A stretch of DNA of 64,000 nucleotides, taken from positions 96,001 through 160,000 of the forward strand of contig CAVXEP010000020.1 in assembly GCA_963760795.1 (NCBI GenBank), given 5' to 3'. This DNA is from an uncultured delta proteobacterium. Its GTDB lineage: Bacteria > Desulfobacterota > Binatia > UBA9968. Position 1 is the stretch's first letter, and every line of letters begins with the position of its first letter. Shown here piece after piece: positions 22,511 to 36,182 of this stretch. A program made the translations under genes and the position numbers. Below the pieces are notes generated by a model that was not told where the DNA came from, ran no database searches, and saw nothing but the letters and a program-made list of their open reading frames with translations.

Positions 22511-23020
22511 CTACAAGAACACGCTGATATTTTTCGCGTCCAGCACCGCTTGATCGAGGATGATCGTGCGCCGGGCGATTTTGAAGGTCGCCGCCGCGCG
22601 CCGCAGGATATCCTGGCGCGTGCCGACGAAGATATCTTTGTCGCTTTCCTGGCGCGTGCGGTAGACAAGGAAATTCGAATGGGCTTCGATTTGCTCGCCG
22701 TCGTCTTTCTTAATACGGATGTTGGTAATCAGGTGGCGCGTGCGCGACGGCGGCACTTCCGCCCAGGCGATTTTGGAATAGGCGCGCTCGACGCGGATCT
22801 TCAAACTCTGCCAATCGTCGTTGAAATAATAGGCGTCGCCGGGCTGGGAAAGCTCGTCGCTGACACTTTCAGGCCGCTCCAGCGTGTTGTGCCGTAGCGG
22901 CATCCAGTAACGAATGTCTTCGGTCAGCAGCTCGAACCACTCGCGCAGCTTGCGCTCGTCGAGCAGCTCGGCTTCGAGGTAATAAAAATCCTCGACTTGG
23001 TGGCGCAGCTGGCTATCCAT
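22511..23020 (-). CDS. Aromatic ring-hydroxylating dioxygenase beta subunit
   Basis: EAELLDER...W, YWMP, PPSRTRHLITN, SNFLVYRTR, KIARRTIILDQ. Confidence 0.92.
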   Translation of the reverse strand: MDSQLRHQVEDFYYLEAELLDERKLREWFELLTEDIRYWMPLRHNTLERPESVSDELSQPGDAYYFNDDWQSLKIRVERAYSKIAWAEVPPSRTRHLITNIRIKKDDGEQIEAHSNFLVYRTRQESDKDIFVGTRQDILRRAAATFKIARRTIILDQAVLDAKNISVFL

Positions 23021-24296
23021 TGGACTCGCTCGCAACCTCGCGCCAATTTTTCGCTTGCAACAGCTTGGCCCAATGCATGTACAGGCTCAGCTGATTGTTG
23101 TCGCTGAAGCGGCTTTTCACGCGTCCCGGCAGATCGATTTCCACCGGCGGCTCGTTGCCGCGCATCTGATAGTTGGCCGGAAAACGCTGGCCGATCAGGC
23201 TGCGCGCCGCGCCGGTGACTTGAATCCAGTTGTCCATGTCATCCTGCTCAAAGACTCCCGACGGACTGAAACGGTACTGCGCCACGAAGCGCATGACATC
23301 CTTGATCTTCGGCGAAGCCGCTTTGTCGACGATCGCCCAGCTCCAGATCTCCATCTTGTCCGGCCCGCGCGGCTGCCAGACGCGTATCGTCCGCGTCAGC
23401 CAGTGCACCGAGAGATTGGGGAAAACCGTTCCCGCCGACGGGGAAATCTGCCGCGCCCGCTTGGTTCCTAAACGGCTTTCAATTTCAACTTCGTGCTCTT
23501 TCATGTAGTCGGCGAGCTGATCATCCGGCTGAGCAAACCACGGCCCGCTGTCCGGCGGCGTCAGCCAGGAGACTAGAATATGGCCGTTGTCGCAGGCGAT
23601 CTGACAGCCTTTGTTCCATTGGCGGGTTTTGCTGGTGGTCGTGTCGATGCCCAACTCGCGAGCCGAGCCATGAGTCGAGGCGATGTGGTAACCGTCGCCA
23701 CCGAAATTTTCCGCGGCGGTCTTCCAGTTGGCGTCGACTACCCAGCGCTGCGGACCGCTTACCTCCGTGCCGCCCTCGCGGCGGTCGAGGAGAATGTCCA
23801 AATACCAGGCCATGTCACCGAGATAATCGCATAGCGACGGCGCTTCGGGATCGAAGGTCGCGAAGATCAGTCCCTTGTAACTGTCGACCTGCGCCACCGA
23901 AACCAAGCCCCACTGCGAGCGATCGAGATTGCCGAAAGTGTCGACCATCGGCACCAGCGCGAGTTTGCCATCGGTGGTGTATGACCAGCCATGATACGAG
24001 CATTGAAATAATTTGGTATTGCCGCGGTCGGCGCGGCACACCCGATTGCCGCGATGGCGGCACATGTTTAAATGCGCGCGCAGTTGGCCGTTTAAGTCGC
24101 GCGCTAAAATCACCGGGTCTTCGCCCATGTAGCGGGTGACGAAATCGCCGGGGTTGGGTATCTCACACTCGTGGCCGAGGTAAAGCCAGCAGCGCGCAAA
24201 GATCCGCTCGCGTTCCAAATCGTAGATCTCCCGGTCGGCGAAGATCCGCCGATCGATGAGACCGCCTTCCGGGTCGACGAGTGATTTGATGTCCAT
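23013..24296 (-). CDS. Rieske aromatic ring-hydroxylating dioxygenase alpha subunit (HcaE/BphA-like)
   Basis: CRHRG and CSYHGW Rieske ligands; NWK..ENF..DGYH..TH; EQDD. Confidence 0.95.
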   Translation of the reverse strand: MDIKSLVDPEGGLIDRRIFADREIYDLERERIFARCWLYLGHECEIPNPGDFVTRYMGEDPVILARDLNGQLRAHLNMCRHRGNRVCRADRGNTKLFQCSYHGWSYTTDGKLALVPMVDTFGNLDRSQWGLVSVAQVDSYKGLIFATFDPEAPSLCDYLGDMAWYLDILLDRREGGTEVSGPQRWVVDANWKTAAENFGGDGYHIASTHGSARELGIDTTTSKTRQWNKGCQIACDNGHILVSWLTPPDSGPWFAQPDDQLADYMKEHEVEIESRLGTKRARQISPSAGTVFPNLSVHWLTRTIRVWQPRGPDKMEIWSWAIVDKAASPKIKDVMRFVAQYRFSPSGVFEQDDMDNWIQVTGAARSLIGQRFPANYQMRGNEPPVEIDLPGRVKSRFSDNNQLSLYMHWAKLLQAKNWREVASESNG

Positions 24297-24569: not shown

Positions 24570-26102
24570 ATGGCTACCAAAGAAACCAACCTAAGTCGCC
24601 GGCGTTTTCTGCAACACAGTACCACGCTCAGCCTCGGGGCTCTGATCGGGCCAGCCCTTGGAGGGAATGCGCTCGCGGCGTCCAGAGAGCGGGTCGTCAT
24701 CTATCAAGGCGTCAGCCTCGACTCGCTCCATCCCTACGGCTACAGCGGCGGCGGCATCAACGGCATCTGGCTCCATCTGATCGAGCCGCTGATCGTCATG
24801 GACTACACCCGGCAAAAATATGTCGGCGTGCTCGCCGACTCGTGGGAGTTCCAAGGACGACGCTGGATATTCCAGCTCAGAAAAAACATCCGCTTTCACA
24901 ACGGCGCGCCGTTCACATCGAAAGACGTGGCCTATTCGATCGAGCGCATGAAAACCGACAAGCGCAGCCTTCAGGGCGGCGACATCTTGGAGCTAGAAGT
25001 TGAAACGCCCGACGATTTCACCGTGGTTTTCAACACCAAGCAGCCACTCTCGCTGCTGCTCGACCGCCTGGACACGCGCTACATCATCAGCAAAGCCGCT
25101 GCGGAAAAATACGGCGACCAAGCCGACAACTACGCCATCGGCACCGGCCCCTATAAATTTGTCAGCTGGCAGCGCGGCGGCAACCTGGTCTTGACGCGCA
25201 ACGACGACTATTGGGGCGCCAAGGCGGAGATCAAGGAAGTCATCTTGAGAGGCGTAAAAGAAGAGGCAGCGCGGGTCGCCGGCCTGCTGTCAGGCCAGGC
25301 CGACGTGGTCAGCAACCTGCCCATCGAAGAAATCGATCGAGTAGCGAAACATCCGCGCGTCCGGGTCGAGAAGATTCCCGGCTTTCGCATGTATTTCGTC
25401 GCCATGAACTTCGCCCATAAACCTTTCGACAACAAGTTGGTGCGCCAAGCGATCAACCACGCCATCGATCCGGCGCCGATGATGAAACATGTCTTTTCCG
25501 GCAACGGCCAGGTGCTCAACGGCCCGCTGGCGGCGAACATGACCGGCTTCGACCCGGCGATGAAACGCTATGCCCACGATCCCAAGAAAGCCCGCGAGCT
25601 GCTCGCCCAGGCCGGCTATCCAAACGGCTTCGAAATCAAGCTGCATTTCTCGCCCGACCGTCATCTCAAGGGCCGAGAAGTCTGTGAAGTGATCGGCGAT
25701 CAGTTGGCAAAAGTCGGCATCAAAATCGAATTGGTCGGCCAGGAGTACGCCGTCTACTGGGGCAGGGATGGCGTCAACGGCGGCAAGCTGCCCTTCTACT
25801 ACGCCGGCCGCACCGCCTCCGACGCCGACACTTTCTACGATCAATACTTTCACACCGGCATCACCAAGCGCATCGGCTACAGCAACCCGGAGGCCGACAA
25901 ACTCATCGAAGAGCAACAGCGCACCGCCGATCAGAAAAAACGCGTGACGATCTTGCAGCAAGCTGGCCGCCTGATCATGGAAGACGCGCCCTTCGTGCCC
26001 CTCTACACCCTATCGGAAATTTACGGCGTGGCGAAAAATGTCATCTGGAAAGGCACACCCGACAACCGTATCCTCGCTGCGGAGATGAAGATCAGAGGGT
26101 GA
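24570..26102 (+). CDS. ABC substrate-binding protein family 5 (Dpp/Opp-like), Tat-exported
   Basis: SRRRFL; FHNGAPFTSKDV; GTGPYKF; VRQAINHAID. Confidence 0.92.
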   Translation: MATKETNLSRRRFLQHSTTLSLGALIGPALGGNALAASRERVVIYQGVSLDSLHPYGYSGGGINGIWLHLIEPLIVMDYTRQKYVGVLADSWEFQGRRWIFQLRKNIRFHNGAPFTSKDVAYSIERMKTDKRSLQGGDILELEVETPDDFTVVFNTKQPLSLLLDRLDTRYIISKAAAEKYGDQADNYAIGTGPYKFVSWQRGGNLVLTRNDDYWGAKAEIKEVILRGVKEEAARVAGLLSGQADVVSNLPIEEIDRVAKHPRVRVEKIPGFRMYFVAMNFAHKPFDNKLVRQAINHAIDPAPMMKHVFSGNGQVLNGPLAANMTGFDPAMKRYAHDPKKARELLAQAGYPNGFEIKLHFSPDRHLKGREVCEVIGDQLAKVGIKIELVGQEYAVYWGRDGVNGGKLPFYYAGRTASDADTFYDQYFHTGITKRIGYSNPEADKLIEEQQRTADQKKRVTILQQAGRLIMEDAPFVPLYTLSEIYGVAKNVIWKGTPDNRILAAEMKIRG

Positions 26103-26118
26103 GGGTGAATCGGGGATA

Positions 26119-26191
26119 GTGGAGTGATGGAGTTCTGGAGTACTGGAGGGAGGAACCGTCTGACCCATCACTCCAACACTCCATTACTCCA
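26119..26191. repeat. TGGAGT-unit periodic palindrome
   Basis: Tandem TGGAGTnn units followed by inverted ACTCCA units, between convergent genes. Confidence 0.75.
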
Positions 26192-27680
26192 ACCTAAGCA
26201 TTTGTCCCAACGCGAGGCCGAACGGCGCGGCGTGAACGCCGTACTGGCTAAAGTCATTGGCGAATGCGCACAGCGCCCAGTGCGCCGCGTCGCGATACTT
26301 GGCGTCCTTCGTCGCTTGAGCCAAATGAGAGAAAGAACGAAGCCGCGGTGCCGTTCTGTTCGATCAAAGTTAACCGAAGTCGGAGCGAAGCCGAATCCGG
26401 CGTGCAAATATCGTAGAAACCGCCGGCCGGGTTTTTCAGTTCTGATAAAATGAACGCCGCCAACCGTCGCGCCCGATCCACGTATGTCACCATCTCCCGT
26501 CACTTGGTAGGCGCGCAACAACGCGCTGCCCATCTGCGCTTGATCCTGCAGCAGCCCTGGCACATGCGCCGCGCCGTCGAAGTAGTGAAACATCCCGCCG
26601 CCATCGCTGCGGCAGTTCTGCCAGAGAAACTCCAGCGCGGCGAGCCCTCGCTCGCGGTAAGCCGGTTGGTCTAATAACACCGCAGCATCGAGATACGCCG
26701 CGCTGGCAACCCCGTTCGCGTCGGTGTAAATGCAGCGATCGATGATCGTGAAGAATTCCTCGCCATCGACGGCCGGCGGTTCATAACGCAACCAATCTTC
26801 GCAGCCGTGGAAAGTTCCGCTCGCCGGATCGAAAAGCCTGGCATCCAAGTACTCAATAATCTCCTCAGCCATGCGCCGGTATTCCGCCCGCTGAGTGATA
26901 CGAAATACAGACAAGCAATTGGCCAACAGCCCGGCCTCTTCCAACAGCAATTTTTCCCGGTGCGGATGGCTCCAGTCCGGGTTGGAAGAAGTGCGAAAGT
27001 AGGCGCCGCCTTGCTGATCGTAAAGCTCACCTGCGCGCATGCGCTCAAGAGTCAAACAAACCTGATCGAGATATTGCGTGTCGTCGGTCGCTTGATACCG
27101 CGCCAGCAAAAAATCATTAACTTGGGGATGGATAAATTTCTGCCCACGATCGTAACCGCCGTAGGAACGGTCCGCCAGCGCCATTACGCTCGCGGTGATC
27201 TCCGAAAGATTCGTTGCCAACTCCGCCTCATCCAACTGTCGCGCCGGCTCAGGCGTCGACTCTTCCGGTAGCTTGAGCCGCGGCACGAAGCTCCTCTTTG
27301 CGCTGCTGGTAGCTCATGTACACATCGATGAGCAATTCTTTGAACTGATCCGTCGGCAAATAATTTACGGCCGCGAGCAACTGCCCAGCGGGCGTCATGA
27401 AGGCGATGGTCGGCCAGCCGTTCAAGTTGTAACGCGCATCGACGTCGGGCCGCTGGGCATACTCGACCCGCAGCGGAATGAAGTAAGCATTCAAGAGTGC
27501 GATGTTTTCAGTCTCAGAAAACGCTTGCTCATCCATACGCTGGCAGAACCGGCACCAGAACGCCGACAAGTAAAGCATAACAGGTTTGTCCTCGGCGTGG
27601 GCCGCGCGGAAGGCCGCGTCGCCCCATTCATGCCAGGGGATGATATGAGCTTGGTTGGGAAGCGGTGAGAAACGGATCAC
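26184..27680 (-). CDS. YyaL/SSP411-like thioredoxin-domain (DUF255) protein (several frameshifts)
   Basis: WHEWGDAAF..DKPV..WCRFC..MD, RPDVDARY..GWPT; HPHREKLL; GLLQDQ; ELKNPAGGFYD; reconstructed stop at 26184. Confidence 0.8.
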
Positions 27681-27780
27681 GGTTTTGAATGACCTCTGTT
27701 AATCTGCCTAGCTTTTAGCACTTTTCACCTTCGCGAAGAAAGGCCATAAACTAGTTCGTGGTTCAGTTTCGAATGTAACC

Positions 27781-27840
27781 GTAGGGGCGACCCCCTGTGG
27801 TCGCCCGTCCGAGAGGGTAGGCACAGGGGCCTACCCCTAC
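27781..27840. repeat. GTAG-type REP doublet
   Basis: GTAGGGGCGAC...GTCGCCC then GGGTAGGC...GCCTACCCCTAC. Confidence 0.8.
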
Positions 27841-27847
27841 AATGACA

Positions 27848-27911
27848 ATTCACTGAAATCACAGTGAATCACGACCACAAGTTGACAAGCGCAAGCGCGG
27901 GGACATAGATT
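27848..27911 (+). promoter_or_regulatory. Operator-like inverted repeat plus sigma70-like promoter of the grdE/grdB-like operon
   Basis: ATTCACTG-N6-CAGTGAAT (27848-27869); TTGACA (27882)-N18-TAGATT (27906). Confidence 0.55.
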
Positions 27912-27959
27912 GCCTAGAATCGAAGTTTGATCTGTCAGTTGTAATCGGGAGATCGTCGC

Positions 27960-29237
27960 ATGCAGTTGACCCTTGCAGTCCATCCAATCACCGACATTCA
28001 ATTCGGCACGCGCTTGTCGCTCGACGGCAGCGCGCTTACGGTCGATGGCGAGGAATTGCGCCGCTTGGTGTTGGAAGATGCGGCCATCGATAGCGTCGCT
28101 TTCGACATCGTCCGTCCCGGCGAGAGCTGCCGCGCCGGGCCGATCTTCGATGTCGTCGAGCCGCGCGCTAAAGCCGACGGCGGCAGCGACTTTCCCGGCA
28201 TCATTGGCGCGCCGACTACCGCGGGGATGGGAACGACTCATGTACTCGCCGGCGCGGCGGTCTCGATCCTCGCCGAAATGTCCCCCGACCCGTCGCGCAG
28301 CGCCACCGGACGGGTGTTGGAGATGAGCGGCAGCGCCACCGCCGGCAGCGCATATTCAAAACTTTGTCATCTCTTGGTGGTACCGCAGACAAAATCAGGA
28401 TTGCCGCGCTCGGCGGTGTTAAAAGCCTACCGCGTCGCCAGCGTCAAAGTCGCCGTGCGTCTAGCCCGCGCCGCGCTTGCGCAGGCACCGGCGTCCACAC
28501 AGACGTTTGAGCCCATCGGCGCCGAAGACAAGAGCCGCGAAGGGTTGTCCCGGGTCGTTTATATCGGGCAGATTTTTTCGCGCCAGCGCAAACCGGCGGT
28601 GGACGAGCCGATTATTTATGGAACCAATACCGACGGCATGCTGCCGGTAATTTTACATCCCGACGAATGGCTCGATGGCGCGCTGGTGCCGTCGCTCAAC
28701 TCCTGGTTTGGCGGCACGGAGACTTATTTTTATCAAAATCACCCGGTGGTTCTCGATCTCTACCGGCGCCACCACGCGCGCGAGATAAACTTTGTCGGCA
28801 CCGTGGCCACCGTCGCCGGCAACGACAATGTCGACCGGGTAAGGCAGTGCCACGCCGCGGCGAATTTAGCCAAGTGGAACCTGCGCGCCGACGGCGCCGT
28901 GATGACCAAGTACGGCGGCGGCTTGCCCCACGCCGACCTGTCGGAGACCGCGCGCTTGTTGGAACATATGGGCATCAAAACCGCCGTCATGGTTTCCGAC
29001 GTGGCGCGCGACCGGCGCGTCGAATCGGCGCTCTTGTTCAACGTCCCTGAAGTCAACGCCATCGTCTACAACGGCGGCAACGGCACCGAATATGAAATTC
29101 CCAAAGCCGCCCGCGTCATCGCCGCCAAACCGGAACTGGCCGCGCTGCTTGCCGGACCCATGACGATAGATGCCAACAACATCATCGGCGTCACCAACCA
29201 GCAGGGCGCGTCGCGAATGAAATCGTTAGTCTATTGA
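27960..29237 (+). CDS. Glycine/sarcosine/betaine reductase component B proprotein-like (GrdE/GrdI family)
   Basis: DVVEPRAK, FPGIIG..GMGTTHVLAG, LHPDEWLDGA, YQNHPVV..LY, GGG.PHADL. Confidence 0.85.
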   Translation: MQLTLAVHPITDIQFGTRLSLDGSALTVDGEELRRLVLEDAAIDSVAFDIVRPGESCRAGPIFDVVEPRAKADGGSDFPGIIGAPTTAGMGTTHVLAGAAVSILAEMSPDPSRSATGRVLEMSGSATAGSAYSKLCHLLVVPQTKSGLPRSAVLKAYRVASVKVAVRLARAALAQAPASTQTFEPIGAEDKSREGLSRVVYIGQIFSRQRKPAVDEPIIYGTNTDGMLPVILHPDEWLDGALVPSLNSWFGGTETYFYQNHPVVLDLYRRHHAREINFVGTVATVAGNDNVDRVRQCHAAANLAKWNLRADGAVMTKYGGGLPHADLSETARLLEHMGIKTAVMVSDVARDRRVESALLFNVPEVNAIVYNGGNGTEYEIPKAARVIAAKPELAALLAGPMTIDANNIIGVTNQQGASRMKSLVY

Positions 29238-29301
29238 AGAAAACGCGAGGCATGAGTAGAAATCCGAACTCGCGCTTCATGCCTGTATGAAGGAGCTAAG
29301 T

Positions 29302-30585
29302 ATGCGCATCGTTTACTACGTCAATCAATTTTTCGGCGGCATCGGCGCGGAAGAACATGCCGGCGCGCCACTGGAATTTCGCGACGGCGCATTGGGGCCA
29401 GCGAAGTTGTTCGAACAGCTCATGGGCGAAGATACGACGGTAACCATGACAATCGTCTGCGGTGACAATCATGCCGTCGAACATCAAGACCAGGTAACCG
29501 CGGCGGTGTTGGAGAAGGTTCGCGCCACCGGCGCGGATCTCTTCGCCGCCGGTCCCTGCTTCGATGCCGGCCGTTACGGCATGGCCGCCGGCGCAATCTG
29601 CAGCGCCATACAGAGCGAGTTGGGGATTCCCGCGATCACCGCGATGCACGTGGAGAATCCCGGTGTCGATCTTTTCCGCGAGCAGCTTCACATCGTCGAC
29701 TCGGGGAACAGTATCGCCAAGATGCGCGATATCATCGCCACCATGGCAAAGCTCGGCAAAAAACTCGTCGCCAAGCAACCCATCGGGCTGCCGGCCGAGG
29801 AAGGCTATATCAGCCGCGGCCTGCTGCGCGATCAACTCGGCGACAAGACCGCGGCCACGCGCATGATCGATATGCTCATAGCCAAAATGAACGGCGAAAA
29901 GTTCGATTCCGAAATGCTGCCGAACGCGTTCGCGCCCGTGCCGATGCCGGCGCGGATTAAAGACATGTCGAAAGCCAAGCTGATGGTTATCACCGACGGC
30001 GGGCTGGTGCCCAAGGGGAATCCCGACAAGATCGAAGGCACTGCGGCGACTCGTTGGGGCGCCTATAACATCGAAGGCAGCGATGATTTACGCAGTGAGG
30101 ACTACGAAGTCTCGCACGGCGGCTACGATACGCGATTCGTCCAGGACGATCCCGACCGTTTGGTACCCCTCGACGCCCTGCGCGAGCTGGAAAAGAGCGG
30201 CGTCATCGGCAAACTGCACGAGGAGTTTCTCTCCACCTGCGGCCGTTCCAATCCGCTCTCGAACACCCGCCGACTGGGACGGGAAATGGTGGAAAAAATC
30301 AAGCGCGACGGCGTCGACGCGGTGATCCTCACGTCAACTTGAGGCACCAGCACTCGCAGCGGCGCTGCGATCACCACCGAACTCGAAAAGGCCGGCATCC
30401 CGGTCGTGCAAATCACCTCCGCGCTGCCGATCGCCAAAATGGTCGGCTCCAACCGCGTCGTTTTAGGCACTGGAATTGTCCATGTGACTGGCGACGCCAA
30501 GTTACCGCTGAAGGATGAAAAAGAGCTGCGCCGCAAGCTCGTCCAACAAGCCCTCGACGCGTTGCAGTCGAATGAGAAACAGTAG
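29302..30585 (+). CDS. grdB: Glycine/sarcosine/betaine reductase selenoprotein B-like; Sec at TGA 30340-30342
   Basis: YVNQFFGGIG.EE, CGDN, AGPCFDAGRYG, GGLVPKGNPD, HGGYD, DPDRLVPLD, VDAVILTST-U-GTSTRSGA; frame continues as ELEKAGIPVVQI..VGSNRVV..RKLVQQALDAL to TAG 30583. Confidence 0.9.
30354..30370 (+). promoter_or_regulatory. Candidate bacterial SECIS hairpin
   Basis: TCGCAGC-GGC-GCTGCGA stem-loop starting 11 nt after the UGA, with G in the loop. Confidence 0.7.
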
Positions 30586-30640
30586 CAGGCGGCTGTAAAA
30601 CTCACATCTTCGGCGCGTTCCCAATGACAAGAAGACTTTT

Positions 30641-30716
30641 ATCACGAAGGCACGAAGGACACGAAGTTTCGCAAATTAAATCTCTTACCTTCGTGATCTT
30701 CGTCCTTACGTGGTGA
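30641..30716. repeat. CACGAAG-unit periodic palindrome
   Basis: Three CACGAAG units, a spacer, then inverted CTTCGT units ending GTGGTG. Confidence 0.75.
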
Positions 30717-30725
30717 GTCTTAGGA

Positions 30726-32009
30726 TCATCCCTTGGCTGCGATTTCGTCCAAAACCGGTAGCAGATAGCTTCGGAACACTTCGTAGTTCTCCGTCATCGG
30801 GAAGTGGCCTAGCCCTTTCATCTCGACAAACTTCGATCCTTTGATGTGCTCTGCGAGCGCGCGGGTTTCGATCGGCGAATTGCCCCAATCATACTCACCG
30901 GTCAGTAAGTAGACGGGAATCTTCGAAGTGTCGATTTGTGCCGCCTTTTCCTCCGTCAGCCCGTGATCGATGAAGTTGTAGTACAGATCGCCCTTGGAAA
31001 CCGACGGCGAGCTTTGGCCGTAGATCCAGGCAACCTCGCGGCGGTAGGTTTCTGGATTGCCCGGTGCGGTCTTGCCGTACATGGTCGCCATGCGCATCTC
31101 GTTGCCGATACGCGGGTGATCGTGGAAATCGAGCGAACGAGCCATGCTGTATTTGCTCGCGCCCGATTCAAGCCCGACCACGGCACGGAACTTATCCGGA
31201 TGCTCTAGCGCCAGATTTATCGCCAACCGGCCACCGATCGAGCAACCGACATAAACGGGTTGTGTCAAGTGCAACGCGCCGCTGATCGCGATTTGGCACT
31301 CGACAAAAAAACTTCGCGTCAATTTATATTCCTGCTTCCACCACTCGACACTTTCCGGCGGCGACGACTTGCCGTGGTAGGGGATATCGGGAACGATGAC
31401 ACGAAAGCGCCGGGTAATTTCCTCGTCATTCAAGAGATGGCGCCACTGCCGGCCATCGGACGCCGCGGTGTGCTGGCAGAGCAGCGGAATGCCTTGGCCG
31501 TTTTCTTCAAAATAAATCCGGTATTCAATCCCCAAGATGTCCACGTGGAGGTATCTGCCGACAATCGCCTCGCATCCCCCTCGATCGAATTTCGCCGCCG
31601 GGCCGGACTGAATCGTCGATCCGGTTTGGCACTCCCGAAAAATATCGAGCATGCGATTCACGGCCCAAAAGTGTGCGAACATCGCTTCGATGTCGCCGCC
31701 GACGTCGAAATGCCGGCGCGCCATCAGGCCCGACAGGTCGGAAAAATAGGCTGGCGGCTGTCGCTGTAAAAACTTCTCCCACGCCGCCGCCGAACCCTTG
31801 ATGAAAAAACTCCAGGGATTCATGAACGTGGGATTGAGCTGAATTTGGGTGACGATACCGTCACGCAGCTTGACGATACACTCGGCGTCGTCAACCGCCA
31901 AAAGAATGTCTTTGGAAAAAAAACGGCTGGCGCGGCAAAACTCTCGGTCGTTGTTTAGGGTGTGACACACCCGGCCGATTTGGTCTTGTTGAAGAAAGCA
32001 AGGAAACAT
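30726..32009 (-). CDS. Alpha/beta hydrolase with N-terminal SCP2-like domain
   Basis: LLCQHTA, DIPYHGKS, GCSIGG nucleophile elbow, TGEYD, GHFPMTEN; RBS GGAGGAG. Confidence 0.85.
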   Translation of the reverse strand: MFPCFLQQDQIGRVCHTLNNDREFCRASRFFSKDILLAVDDAECIVKLRDGIVTQIQLNPTFMNPWSFFIKGSAAAWEKFLQRQPPAYFSDLSGLMARRHFDVGGDIEAMFAHFWAVNRMLDIFRECQTGSTIQSGPAAKFDRGGCEAIVGRYLHVDILGIEYRIYFEENGQGIPLLCQHTAASDGRQWRHLLNDEEITRRFRVIVPDIPYHGKSSPPESVEWWKQEYKLTRSFFVECQIAISGALHLTQPVYVGCSIGGRLAINLALEHPDKFRAVVGLESGASKYSMARSLDFHDHPRIGNEMRMATMYGKTAPGNPETYRREVAWIYGQSSPSVSKGDLYYNFIDHGLTEEKAAQIDTSKIPVYLLTGEYDWGNSPIETRALAEHIKGSKFVEMKGLGHFPMTENYEVFRSYLLPVLDEIAAKG

Positions 32010-32029
32010 AGATAGCTCCTCCATTATGG

Positions 32030-32206
32030 TTAAGACCGGCTCACTTTATGCCCAAACTTGGCGATCAGCCAGTCCACCGTCGGCATGCCGCTGCTGGAGT
32101 AGCTGAGAGTGATCTTCTGTAGCGGCGTTTGCGCCTCGGCAGCGTATCCGGTGAGCGACAAACAAATTAAGGTCGAAACCAGGACCACGATAATTTTAAG
32201 CTTCAC
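32030..32206 (-). pseudogene. Truncated ABC substrate-binding protein (58 codons)
   Basis: RBS AGGAG and GTG start; MKLKIIVVLVSTLICLSLTGYAAEAQTPLQKITLSYSSSGMPTVDWLIAK, then it breaks off. Confidence 0.65.
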
Positions 32207-32429
32207 TAATTTTCTCCTGGAGGAATATTGCCGGTATATTAACCCTAATCTTAGACAATCGGCCAGCAGCCGAGGAAACGTTACACTGCGGAGTTAACTT
32301 TCGTATTGCCAGCGCCCTCTCTTGAGCCCGCGCCGATCTCGTTATATGACTGGCCAGACTGAATTTCACGGCATGCAGAGCCGGGTTAGAAATCAGTTCA
32401 ACCAACATACCAACGGAGGAATGACAAGC

Positions 32430-32922
<493 letters not shown>

Positions 32923-32936
<14 letters not shown>

Positions 32937-33793
32937 TTTTGGTTATGTCGCCGCCCGTTCGGTGGAAGACGCTTTGCAGCTGATGGCCAAGCATGGCGAG
33001 GATGGCAAACTCCTGGCCGGCGGTCACAGCTTGATTCCGGCGATGAAGCTGCGGCTGCAATCGCCGCAGACTTTGATCGACTTGGGCACCGTGCCGGGCC
33101 TGCGTGGCGTGAGCGTTGACGGCAGTCATCTGGTCATCGGCGCACTGACAGTGCACGCCGACGTCGCCTCATCCGACCTCGTGCGCAAGCATGTTCCCGC
33201 CCTGGCCGACGCCGCTGCGGTGATTGGCGATGTCCAGGTGCGCAACCGCGGCACCATCGGCGGCAGCGTTGCCCATGCCGACCCCGCGGCAGACTTACCG
33301 GTTGTCCTGACCGCGCTCAACGCCAGTTTCGTCGCCCAGTCGCCAACCGGCAAGCGCACCATTAGCGTCGACGATTTTTTCACCGATTTTTACACCACCG
33401 CGTTAAACGCCAATGAAATTCTTACCGAAATCCGCGTGCCGATTCCGGCCGCTGGAACCGGCACGGCATACGCCAAGTTGCCGCACCCGGCCTCCGGTTA
33501 CGTGGTCGTCAGCGCGGCGGCGTTGATCGTCGCGACAGGCCTCCGGCACCTGCACCGCTTCGCGGATCGCCATCGGCGGCTTGAGCAGCGGTCCGATCCG
33601 GGCCATCGCAACCGAACTGGAACTGCAAGGTAAGCCGTTGACGACACAGATGATCGCCGGCGCCGCAGCCAAAGCCGCCGAAGAGACCGACCCGATGGAA
33701 GATTCTTACGCCAGCGCGGAGTACAAGCGCCATGTCGCGACGGTATACGCGCGCAAGGCGATTGAGGCAGCGGTGGCACGCGCGGCAAAATAG
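32923..33793 (+). CDS. coxM: Mo-hydroxylase FAD subunit, CoxM/CutM-like (frameshift near 33535)
   Basis: [42 protein letters not shown]. Confidence 0.9.
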
Positions 33794-33864
33794 CGATTCA
33801 AGATCTTGATACGCCTCTCTGACCCCAAACCCGGGAGAGAAGGTCAAGAGGGAGACAGACCACC

Positions 33865-36182
33865 ATGACCACCGAACATCAAACCAGCGGACTGATCGGC
33901 GCCTCGCCCAAGCGAGTCGAAGATCCGCCGCTGATTACCGGCAAGGGCTGCTACACCGACGATATTCAATTGCCGGGCATGCTCTATCTCGCGTTTCAGC
34001 GCAGCCCTTACCCGCATGCGAAAATTATTTCTATCGACAGCAGCAAAGCCAAATCCATGGCCGGCGTCGAACTGGTCATTACCGGCGACGATCTCAGCGA
34101 CAAGCTCAATCTCGCGCCATCGCAGGTGCTGCCGAACATGATCATTCCCGCGCATCCAGTGCTCGCCCGCGGCGCCGTGCATTGCGTCGGCGTGCCGGTC
34201 GCCGCCGTGGCCGCCAAGACGCGAGCGCAAGCGAAGATGCGGCCCATGCCATCGACGTCGAATATGACGAGCTGCCCGGCGTGTCCAACGCCGAGGACGC
34301 GCTCAAAGCCCGGCGCGCCGCTCGCCCATCAGGAGCTCGACAGCAACGTCTGCTACACGATGACGAAAAACGGCGGCGACGTCGATAAAGCCTTCGCCGC
34401 GGCGGATCATGTCTTCACCATGCATATCGCCAGCCCGCGCCAGGTGGCCTTGGCGATGGAACCGCGCGGCATCGCCGTCAAGCCCGATCCCTTCGGTAAG
34501 AATTTAACTATCTGGCTGTCGACTCAAGGACCCCATCGCGCCCGCGCCGAGATCTCCGGCGTGTTGGGTTTTCCCGAGCATAGAATTCATTTGATCGCCC
34601 CCGATGTCGGCGGCGGCTTCGGCAGCAAAGGGCCGGTCTACCGCGAAGACATCGTCGCCTGCTACGTCGCGCTCAAGCTGCGCAAGCCGGTCAAATGGAT
34701 CGCCACCCGCAGCGAGGATTTTCTGACGACCATCCAAGGGCGCGATCAGGCGATGACCTCCGAGATGGCGCTCAGCAAAGACGGCAAGATCCTCGGCTTG
34801 AAAGTCAAAGTGGTCGCCAACCTGGGCGCGTATCTGCACTCCAGCACCGCCGGACCGCCCCAGCGCATGATGGGCATGGCCTGCGGCAGCTATCAGATCA
34901 AAGACTGCCGCGTCGAGATTGTCAGCGTTTTCACCAACACCTGCCCCACCGGCCCCTATCGCGGCGCCGGCCGGCCCGAGTCGGTGTTGAACATCGAGCG
35001 GCTACTCGACAAAGCCGCCGACGTGCTCGGCATGGATCGCTTGGCAATCCGCCGCAAGAATTTTATTCAACCCGATCAGTTCCCCTACACCACCGGCACC
35101 GGCGTCGAGTACGATTCCGGCGATTACGAAAAGCCGTTGCGCGAAGCGTTGAAGCTGTCTAACTACGACGAGCTGTTGCGCCAGCGCGATGCTCGGCGCA
35201 ACAAACGGCGAACTGGTCGGCGTCGGCTTTTCCACCTTCGTCGAACCGAGCGGCGGCGCGGGTTTCGAGAGCGGCAGCGGTGCGCGTCGAGCGCACCGGC
35301 GAGATTACCGTGCTCACCGGGTCGAGCTCCCACGGCCAAGGCCATGAAACCTCCTGGGCGCAGATCGCCGCGGGCTTAATGCAGACCAGCATGGATCACG
35401 TCACCGTGCTGCACGGCGACACCCATGTGAGCCAGCAAGGCACCGGCACCTTCGGCAGCCGCAGCGCCGTGGTCGGCGGCGGCGCGCTGGCCACCGCAGC
35501 CGAGCGCGTCATCACCAAAGGCAAACGCATCGCCGCGCACTTGGTCGAAGCGTCACCGGAAGACATCGTCCAAGCCGACGGCGGCTTCGCCGTCAAAGGC
35601 GTGCCTGATAAAAAAGTCAGCTGGCGCCAAGTCGCCGCCGCCGCTTACAGCGGCAGAGTGCCGCAGGGTATGGAGATCGGCCTGCAAGAAACCGCTTTCT
35701 TCGATCCCAAGCGCGAAGCCTGGGGCTTCGGCACCCATATCTCGCTGGTTAGCGTTGACCGTGACACCGGCAAGTTTAATTTGGAAAAACTGGTCATGGT
35801 CGACGACTGCGGCGTGGTCATCAACCCGATGATCGTCGAAGGACAGATTCACGGCGGCGTCGCCCAAGGTTTGGGCGAAGCCCTGCGCGAACAGATGCTC
35901 TACAGTGAAGACGGGCAAGCGCAAACCGACACATTGATGAATTATGCCATCATGCGCGCCGGCGACATGCCGCCCATGATTCTCGGCGAAACCATCACGC
36001 CCAACCCGTTCAATCCGCTGGGCGTCAAAGGCGTCGGCGAATGCGGCACCAACGGCGCCCCGCCGTCAGTGGCCAACGCCCTCATGGACGCGCTCAAGCC
36101 GCTCGGCATCGATCATGTGGACATGCCCTACACCGCGCCCAAACTGTGGGAATTGATTCGCAAGGCGGAGGCGAAGAATTAG
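33865..36182 (+). CDS. coxL: Mo-hydroxylase molybdopterin subunit, form II CoxL/xanthine-dehydrogenase family (several frameshifts)
   Basis: KRVEDPPLITGKG, VGGGFGSK, PYRGAGRPE, HGQGHET, GTFGSRS, EGQIHGGVAQG, GVKGVGE. Confidence 0.88.

Follow-up and report, generated by a model that had tools for sequence, protein, structure and literature searches.

A UGA-recoded GrdB-family selenoprotein of a UGTSTRS clade in Candidatus Binatia and its predicted partner proteins

We analyzed a 64,000-nucleotide stretch of DNA from an uncultured delta proteobacterium (hereafter, the window) and found that the gene at 29302..30585 is predicted to encode a full-length selenoprotein B. The TGA at 30340-42 is almost certainly its selenocysteine (Sec) codon, a degree of confidence that applies to the read-through alone. 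Sequence comparisons indicate that the gene belongs to a single clade, marked by the motif UGTSTRS and distributed over Ca. Binatia, SAR202/Dehalococcoidia, and others, that this clade carries a dedicated DUF255 CxxC protein, and that it works with GrdA and GrdC and without GrdD. The encoded system, as read from these comparisons, departs from the textbook reductases of glycine, sarcosine, and betaine.

Results and Discussion

Reading frame and selenocysteine codon

The gene and its recoded codon are as follows.

29302..30585, + strand: GrdB-family selenoprotein B beta subunit, 427 aa, Sec347, motif TST-U-GTSTRSG (TIGR01918, PF07355, and structure model)
30340..30342, + strand: Sec codon TGA (codon 347, after VDAVILTST), conserved in orthologues and paralogues

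The frame is open from ATG 29302, which is preceded by the ribosome-binding site AAGGAG at 29290-95, to the TGA, and we confirmed the claim of the initial annotation that it continues for 80 codons beyond, to TAG at 30583-85. The read-through product matched TIGR01918 with 473 bits (cut-off, 65.45) over residues 2-424, an alignment that runs across the UGA and supports the GrdB-family assignment made earlier; its score against PF07355 was 440 (cut-off, 22). Codon 347 was TGA in all 66 distinct orthologous coding sequences (at least 66% identity, the window's copy included), and TGA also occupied the Sec column in 5/5 GrdB paralogues of the window's genome and the TST-U-G column in the reference loci L172-L175. 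A GrdB match was obtained in 37 of the 41 genomes searched, the window's included, with one TGA in each listed full-length match. Homologues do not end at the Sec codon: the frame runs on for 77-103 codons past it in 69/70 copies, and the first stop thereafter varies (TAA, 31; TAG, 25; TGA, 14 of the 70 copies). One copy without a stop at the site, in genome G020, was considered as a sense-codon version and rejected, a short deletion having removed the codon together with preceding residues to leave a broken copy.

In an AlphaFold model of the 427-aa product (115-row alignment; mean pLDDT, 92.9), residue 347 is placed between a strand (340-344) and a helix (348-363), and the part encoded past the UGA adds two strands and three helices. 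No solved structure matched the GrdB protein by sequence, and the matches from fold searches were all of a generic flavodoxin-like/periplasmic-binding-type kind, the best having a Z of 10.6 and 16% identity. The contigs from sequencing runs were those of relatives only (best word share, 0.46); two soil contigs among them cover the TGA as far as 30369, 27 nt past it, with no change there among the differences listed. Two RNA runs yielded short pieces, which do not show transcription. A promoter/terminator scan was at chance level, and a single promoter-like site was located at 27882-27911, immediately before grdE.

The alternative that the TGA is a genuine stop, a lesion in a pseudogene, or an error of sequencing draws on the many indel errors of this assembly, the neighboring DUF255 gene included, but it is refuted at the sequence level and retains a negligible probability, given a TGA in 66/66 orthologues, a conserved tail, a covarying SECIS (see below), and residues 348-421 that the model requires to complete a confidently predicted domain; the break is thus an in-frame recoded UGA rather than an indel-type error, as had been proposed. 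UGA recoding in GrdB-family genes is textbook knowledge. Of the 76 library representatives between 330 and 370 aa long, 72 have Thr as their last residue, which indicates that gene callers truncate the GrdB family at UGA, and the read-through itself matters for annotation only, in that UGA cuts the called genes of this family.

SECIS element and selenocysteine machinery

The following element was identified downstream of the Sec codon.

30355..30369, + strand: bacterial SECIS, 6-bp stem (30355-60 with 30364-69), loop GGC (30361-63), 18 nt after UGA

The hairpin TCGCAGC-GGC-GCTGCGA described in the initial annotation is present at 30354-30370 and begins, as described there, 11 nt after the TGA; its conserved stem is 6 bp, the seventh, outer U-A pair being held in only 35/50 sequences. 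All six stem pairs are kept in 50/50 distinct post-UGA sequences (paralogues and four reference operons included). Two of the six are kept through changes on both sides (17 cells; 0/500 shuffles, a significance that is inflated by the relatedness of the sequences), and one covarying pair couples a Cys-to-Ser change (TGC to AGC) with a silent GCA-to-GCT change. Stem pairing was 96%, compared with 13-58% in slid controls. The least variable of 122 conserved four-fold-degenerate sites were codons 355, 356, 352, and 354, all in the hairpin; the third-position entropy had a median of 1.41 bits over the 122 sites and fell below 0.15 only at codons 352, 355, and 356, with codon 354 fourth. Ala355 was GCT in 66/66 orthologues. 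The energy of the element was -9.9 to -10.7 kcal/mol, and its loop, stem, spacing, and energy all fit the bacterial SECIS consensus in the part of the source available to us (PMC13188914). Covariation, frozen silent positions, and the fit to the consensus support the SECIS reading. Folding energy alone was not significant in windows of 41-78 nt (z, -0.02 to -1.40); hairpin stability was discarded as proof, z values of -1.95 and -2.32 having appeared only in windows trimmed post hoc to the hairpin. Rfam gave no match at E ≤1 across 25000-33000.

The initial annotation had pointed to selA, selB, selC, and selD as the machinery to look for, and all four were found in the window's genome.

C11:6183-7514: selA, over cut-off
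C11:2972-4855: selB, over cut-off
C13:190670-190764: selC (tRNA-Sec)
C11:1948-2862: selD, over cut-off, with one TGA within the gene

These results indicate that SelB recognizes the predicted 6-bp SECIS and places Sec at codon 347. An ORF whose translation appeared transposase-like by inspection (C11:4875-6092) lies between selA and selB.

The UGTSTRS clade

The motif was UGTSTRS in 69 of 70 motif matches, the remaining one being a second paralogue, and UGTCTRC in 4/4 reference loci (L172-L175), which were taken from plasmid records and include proteins annotated as GrdF (P. acidaminophilum) and GrdH (E. gilvus). The window's GrdB protein has UxxSxxS and lacks the cysteines of UxxCxxC. The initial annotation, which cited the canonical TST-U-GTCTRC, was right about codon 347 but did not point out that the motif is UGTSTRS here, or that the partner and the remaining components are non-canonical. 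The clade has a further cysteine.

29557..29559, + strand: Cys86 codon (AGPCF), clade-specific

GPC[FY] was present in 68/68 UGTSTRS proteins, and GPAF (Ala) in 21/21 others. An internal comparison weakly pairs Sec347 with the Cys86 position in the N-terminal repeat (E, 0.002).

In a quick tree of 49 rows (28 chosen UGTSTRS proteins and 21 others, leaving out L026, L178, L185, L188, and L194, which the motif pattern had missed), the 28 UGTSTRS rows formed one branch with an SH-aLRT of 99, apart from the four reference GrdF/GrdH/UGTCTRC proteins. The branch nearest to this clade was a sister paralogue with UGSSTRC, in which one cysteine is kept, and with a shorter alpha-subunit segment (L127:13889, L177, L182, and L190). 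The window's protein scored below all the member-specific cut-offs (GrdB, 429 against 602.2; GrdF, 482.7 against 800; GrdH, 439.3 against 775), and the top-scoring named model was GrdF (483 bits). Sequence identity was 44% with the GrdF of P. acidaminophilum and ranged from 41 to 45% across the annotated GrdF and GrdH proteins. By title, the closest named records belong to Ca. Binatia or an uncultured delta proteobacterium, at 91-94% identity, followed by SAR202/Dehalococcoidia and others (59-70%); the window is therefore probably from Ca. Binatia.

A separate SAR202 GrdB clade is mentioned, without these features, in a figure legend in the accessible part of bioRxiv 2022.01.25.477282. Our literature search, of partial coverage, found no description of a cysteine-poor, GrdD-less system.

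Alpha subunit and paralogues

The partner gene lies directly upstream of grdB.

27960..29237, + strand: GrdE/GrdG/GrdI-like alpha subunit, 425 aa, without the GNCV(S/A)xC processing motif (PF09338, 248 bits)

The alpha-subunit motif is DGALVPSLNSWFGG in the window, as against DGA(I)xSGNCV(S/A)(A/P)CDK in three reference operons, and none of the 38 clade-type alpha-subunit motifs counted had a cysteine in the processing segment. In glycine and sarcosine reductases the alpha subunit is made as a pro-protein, and its pyruvoyl site derives from a cysteine. The pyruvoyl group of GrdE has been placed at residue 242 and, according to a view relayed in the same source as far as we could consult it, may only maintain a separate carbonyl of GrdB (PMC9908766). 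Because of this possible role, the loss of the pyruvoyl group would leave amine substrates possible.

The window's genome has four further GrdB paralogues, each with TGA at the Sec column.

C13:9944-11212: GrdB paralogue, UGTSTRS
C1:107031-108308: GrdB paralogue, UGTGTRS
C4:122444-123733: GrdB paralogue, UGTCSRS
C4:155457-156735: GrdB paralogue, UGTCTRS, frameshifted near its start

The full UxxCxxC was present in none of these four, and one grdA and one grdC are common to seven GrdE-like genes and up to five divergent B subunits. In one cluster (C4:118580-122172), a single grdB-like gene is followed by two GrdE-like genes, a pair that recurs in L183, and the GrdE-like gene at C7:96546-97725 has no adjoining grdB match. 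Library proteins of 774-798 aa (P0018, P0028, P0029, and P0103), in which the GrdB part starts at about residue 440, are probably GrdE-GrdB fusions; a frame of 812 codons was also observed at G038:C1:3781418.

GrdA and GrdC without GrdD

GrdA is encoded elsewhere in the window's genome.

C13:157087-157515: GrdA, CFVU (CxxU), 179.7 bits (cut-off, 130)

GrdC of the same genome scored 536.8 bits (cut-off, 450), and the two genes are together on C13. GrdA was found in 34/41 relatives, and the contiguous order grdC-grdA-grdE-grdB occurs in L113, L116, L118, and L127. In regards to GrdD, no protein passed the cut-off in any of the 41 relatives, no match was obtained at E ≤1e-10 in 151 genomes of the class (a set that overlaps with the 41 relatives), and none was found in five further genomes behind Chloroflexota-titled and other loci; tblastn with an annotated GrdD gave no match. 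As a positive control, the GrdD model scored an annotated GrdD at 552 bits. A weak GrdD match in the window's genome was rejected as plsX, a relative of GrdD.

GrdC ends 24-28 residues after GSLF in 11/11 copies, compared with 55-58 in 3/3 operons with grdD, and the GrdC of the clade is thus about 30 residues shorter than the copies from grdD operons; the missing helix may be the one that docks GrdD. In GrdC, the FC[AS]GP cysteine shares its alignment position with the CAG cysteine in FabH enzymes of solved structure (E, 1e-5). This cysteine is also found in canonical GrdC, and therefore by itself gives no indication of CoA transfer. The single-contig genomes G025, G026, G028, and G038 have GrdA, GrdB, and GrdC, with no GrdD and no acetate kinase match. 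An acetate kinase match was obtained in a fifth single-contig genome (G037), in the window's genome, and in 27/40 relatives. No phosphotransacetylase domain was found in the window's genome, which is 88.9% complete.

The neighboring DUF255 gene

Divergent from grdE is the following gene.

26193..27680, - strand: DUF255 (Thioredox_DsbH)/YyaL-like gene, WCxxC thioredoxin domain and epimerase-like helical barrel

The DUF255/YyaL family, which includes SSP411, is poorly understood. The closest solved chain to the window's protein was 7TKV (E, 1.6e-49). In this assembly the frame of the gene is broken into four pieces; short-read contigs of relatives have one base fewer at each of the three breaks (27265, 26484/5, and 26328), and 39 intact copies were recovered elsewhere, which suggests that the breaks are probably assembly errors.

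A DUF255 gene neighbors 50 of 77 related loci. It adjoins 38 of the 46 clade loci with long flanks, in varying order and orientation, and is found beside none of 28 other loci (24 of other paralogues and four reference loci); the other eight long clade loci and the C13 GrdB paralogue have no such neighbor. Among 151 genomes of the class, the clade GrdB occurs in 17, of which 16 have the DUF255 orthologue and 16 have GrdC, and the remaining genomes have none of the three. Because these genomes are kin, the co-occurrence represents one or a few events and not 17. Ordinary thioredoxins and TrxB homologues are present in the window's genome and could serve GrdA. In neighbor clustering, grdB kept just two companions from lineage to lineage, grdE and the DUF255 gene, and no cross-lineage transporter or pathway gene was detected (first 28 clusters in a second pass).

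Several other features surround the locus. A family-5 ABC substrate-binding protein gene (24570-26102, +) converges on the DUF255 gene and recurs in 15 related loci, mostly of close relatives. A Rieske ring-hydroxylating dioxygenase pair (22511-24296, -) and, by inspection, a CoxSML-like molybdoenzyme set (32322-36182, +) flank the locus; both recur in 12-16 related loci, apparently as genus-level synteny, and several of the ORFs are frameshifted. The interval from the DUF255 gene to grdE contains a short, G+C-rich palindromic sequence (27780-27840) that differs in a relative, attracts contig ends from elsewhere, and is probably a dispersed repeat.

Proposed reaction and alternatives

We propose a reaction on the basis of the chemistry of the family, as described in the available portions of three sources (PMC13188914, PMC9908766, and PMC10838667). 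By analogy, Sec347 at the start of its helix would attack the C-alpha of an X-CH2-COO- substrate and expel X. The partner has no pyruvoyl site, and X is therefore probably a self-sufficient leaving group, such as an onium, a halide, a thiolate, or similar, comparable to those of the betaine and fluoroacetate reductases. The carboxymethyl group would then pass to the Sec of GrdA, in which CxxU is kept, and from there to GrdC, whose FabH-type cysteine would carry an acetyl thioester. There is no GrdD to make acetyl phosphate, and the product released by GrdC would therefore most likely be acetyl-CoA, formed by transfer to CoA, or else acetate. Re-reduction or protection of the selenols may fall to the CxxC domain of the DUF255 protein, perhaps together with Cys86, now that the CxxC of protein B has been lost. 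In the part of the report consulted, the fluoroacetate reductase FarEB of Cloacibacillus porcorum MFA1 has a FarB without CxxC and a FarE without the processing cysteines, and its substrate, fluoroacetate, forms no Schiff base (PMC10838667). FarEB thus shares both losses, although the window's partner is not a FarE. We therefore favor a self-activated substrate and an acetyl-CoA or acetate product. We give the whole chain, from the read-through through the self-activated substrate and the acetyl-CoA/acetate product to redox support by DUF255/Cys86, an even chance of being correct.

A more specific proposal, which we put forward only tentatively, is that GrdE-GrdB (UxxSxxS, Cys86), GrdA, the truncated GrdC, and DUF255 constitute a distinct Se-dependent reductase of Ca. 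Binatia/SAR202-type bacteria that cleaves a carboxymethyl compound, makes acetyl-CoA directly via the FabH-like subunit, and uses DUF255/YyaL as a dedicated thiol reductant. If this is true, the DUF255/YyaL family, including SSP411, gains a defined partner, and the link provides a concrete assay for a family without one. Furthermore, a GrdD-less system would test the long-open point of what GrdC does alone. Where metagenome studies score grdB, grdA, and grdC as glycine reductase, glycine fermentation or carbon fixation would be misassigned to organisms lacking the parts for it.

It is possible, though unlikely, that the protein is a redox or repair enzyme, in which a relay of Sec, Cys86, and DUF255 acts by reduction or de-alkylation on an adduct or metabolite that is conserved in cells, with only minor acetyl flux. 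The high conservation across phyla (at least 66% identity), the presence in 37/41 genomes, the lack of a conserved transporter, and the tight link to a CxxC protein are consistent with such a role, but GrdA and GrdC are retained and are co-operonic in several genomes, and up to five divergent B subunits for each GrdA/GrdC pair form the pattern of substrate-specific modules.

We regard as quite unlikely an ordinary glycine/sarcosine reductase that forms acetyl phosphate with PlsX or an unrecognized protein in place of GrdD. GrdF as the best-scoring named model, the 44% identity noted above, and the presence of plsX and acetate kinase in the window's genome point in this direction; however, the protein falls under all three specific cut-offs and on a separate branch, neither CxxC nor the pyruvoyl motif is present, and the four single-contig genomes listed above have the system and show no acetate kinase.

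The biosynthetic direction, in which acetyl-CoA via GrdC and GrdA would carboxymethylate an acceptor bound by protein B, is very unlikely. A FabH-like GrdC would accept acetyl-CoA, and a reverse glycine reductase has been proposed for carbon fixation in the portion available of bioRxiv 2022.01.25.477282, but no biosynthetic genes are conserved nearby and several B paralogues fit substrate scavenging better.

Comparison with known systems

Glycine/sarcosine/betaine protein B consists of GrdB and GrdE, GrdF and GrdG, or GrdH and GrdI (TIGR01918, PF07355, and PF09338), and the GrdABCDE-thioredoxin system is that of Peptoclostridium acidaminophilum and relatives. The window's system resembles protein B in full-length homology, in Sec at the same column, in the grdE-grdB order, and in the SECIS hairpin and its spacing, and it resembles the Grd system in that GrdA (CxxU) and GrdC pass their cut-offs. 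It differs from canonical Grd in the UxxSxxS that replaces UxxCxxC in its clade and the extra Cys86, in a partner without processing cysteines, in the lack of GrdD and the shorter GrdC, in a DUF255 gene beside the locus instead of trxA/trxB, and in a protein that scores under the GrdB, GrdF, and GrdH cut-offs. Reduction of glycine, sarcosine, or betaine is not implied by this evidence.

In regards to FarEB, both losses are shared and both systems are proposed to feed GrdA/GrdC, a comparison made with FarB as described in the part of the report consulted (PMC10838667). Unlike FarEB, the window's partner scored 148.9 bits on the FarE model, against a cut-off of 675 and below its GrdG score, and no MFS antiporter or radical-SAM gene is found among the annotated neighbors. 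The C-terminal Sec domain is homologous to that of the D-proline reductase subunit PrdB (89 bits); unlike PrdB/PrdA, the window's gene encodes a two-domain protein that scores far under the PrdB and PrdA cut-offs and is linked to GrdA/GrdC.
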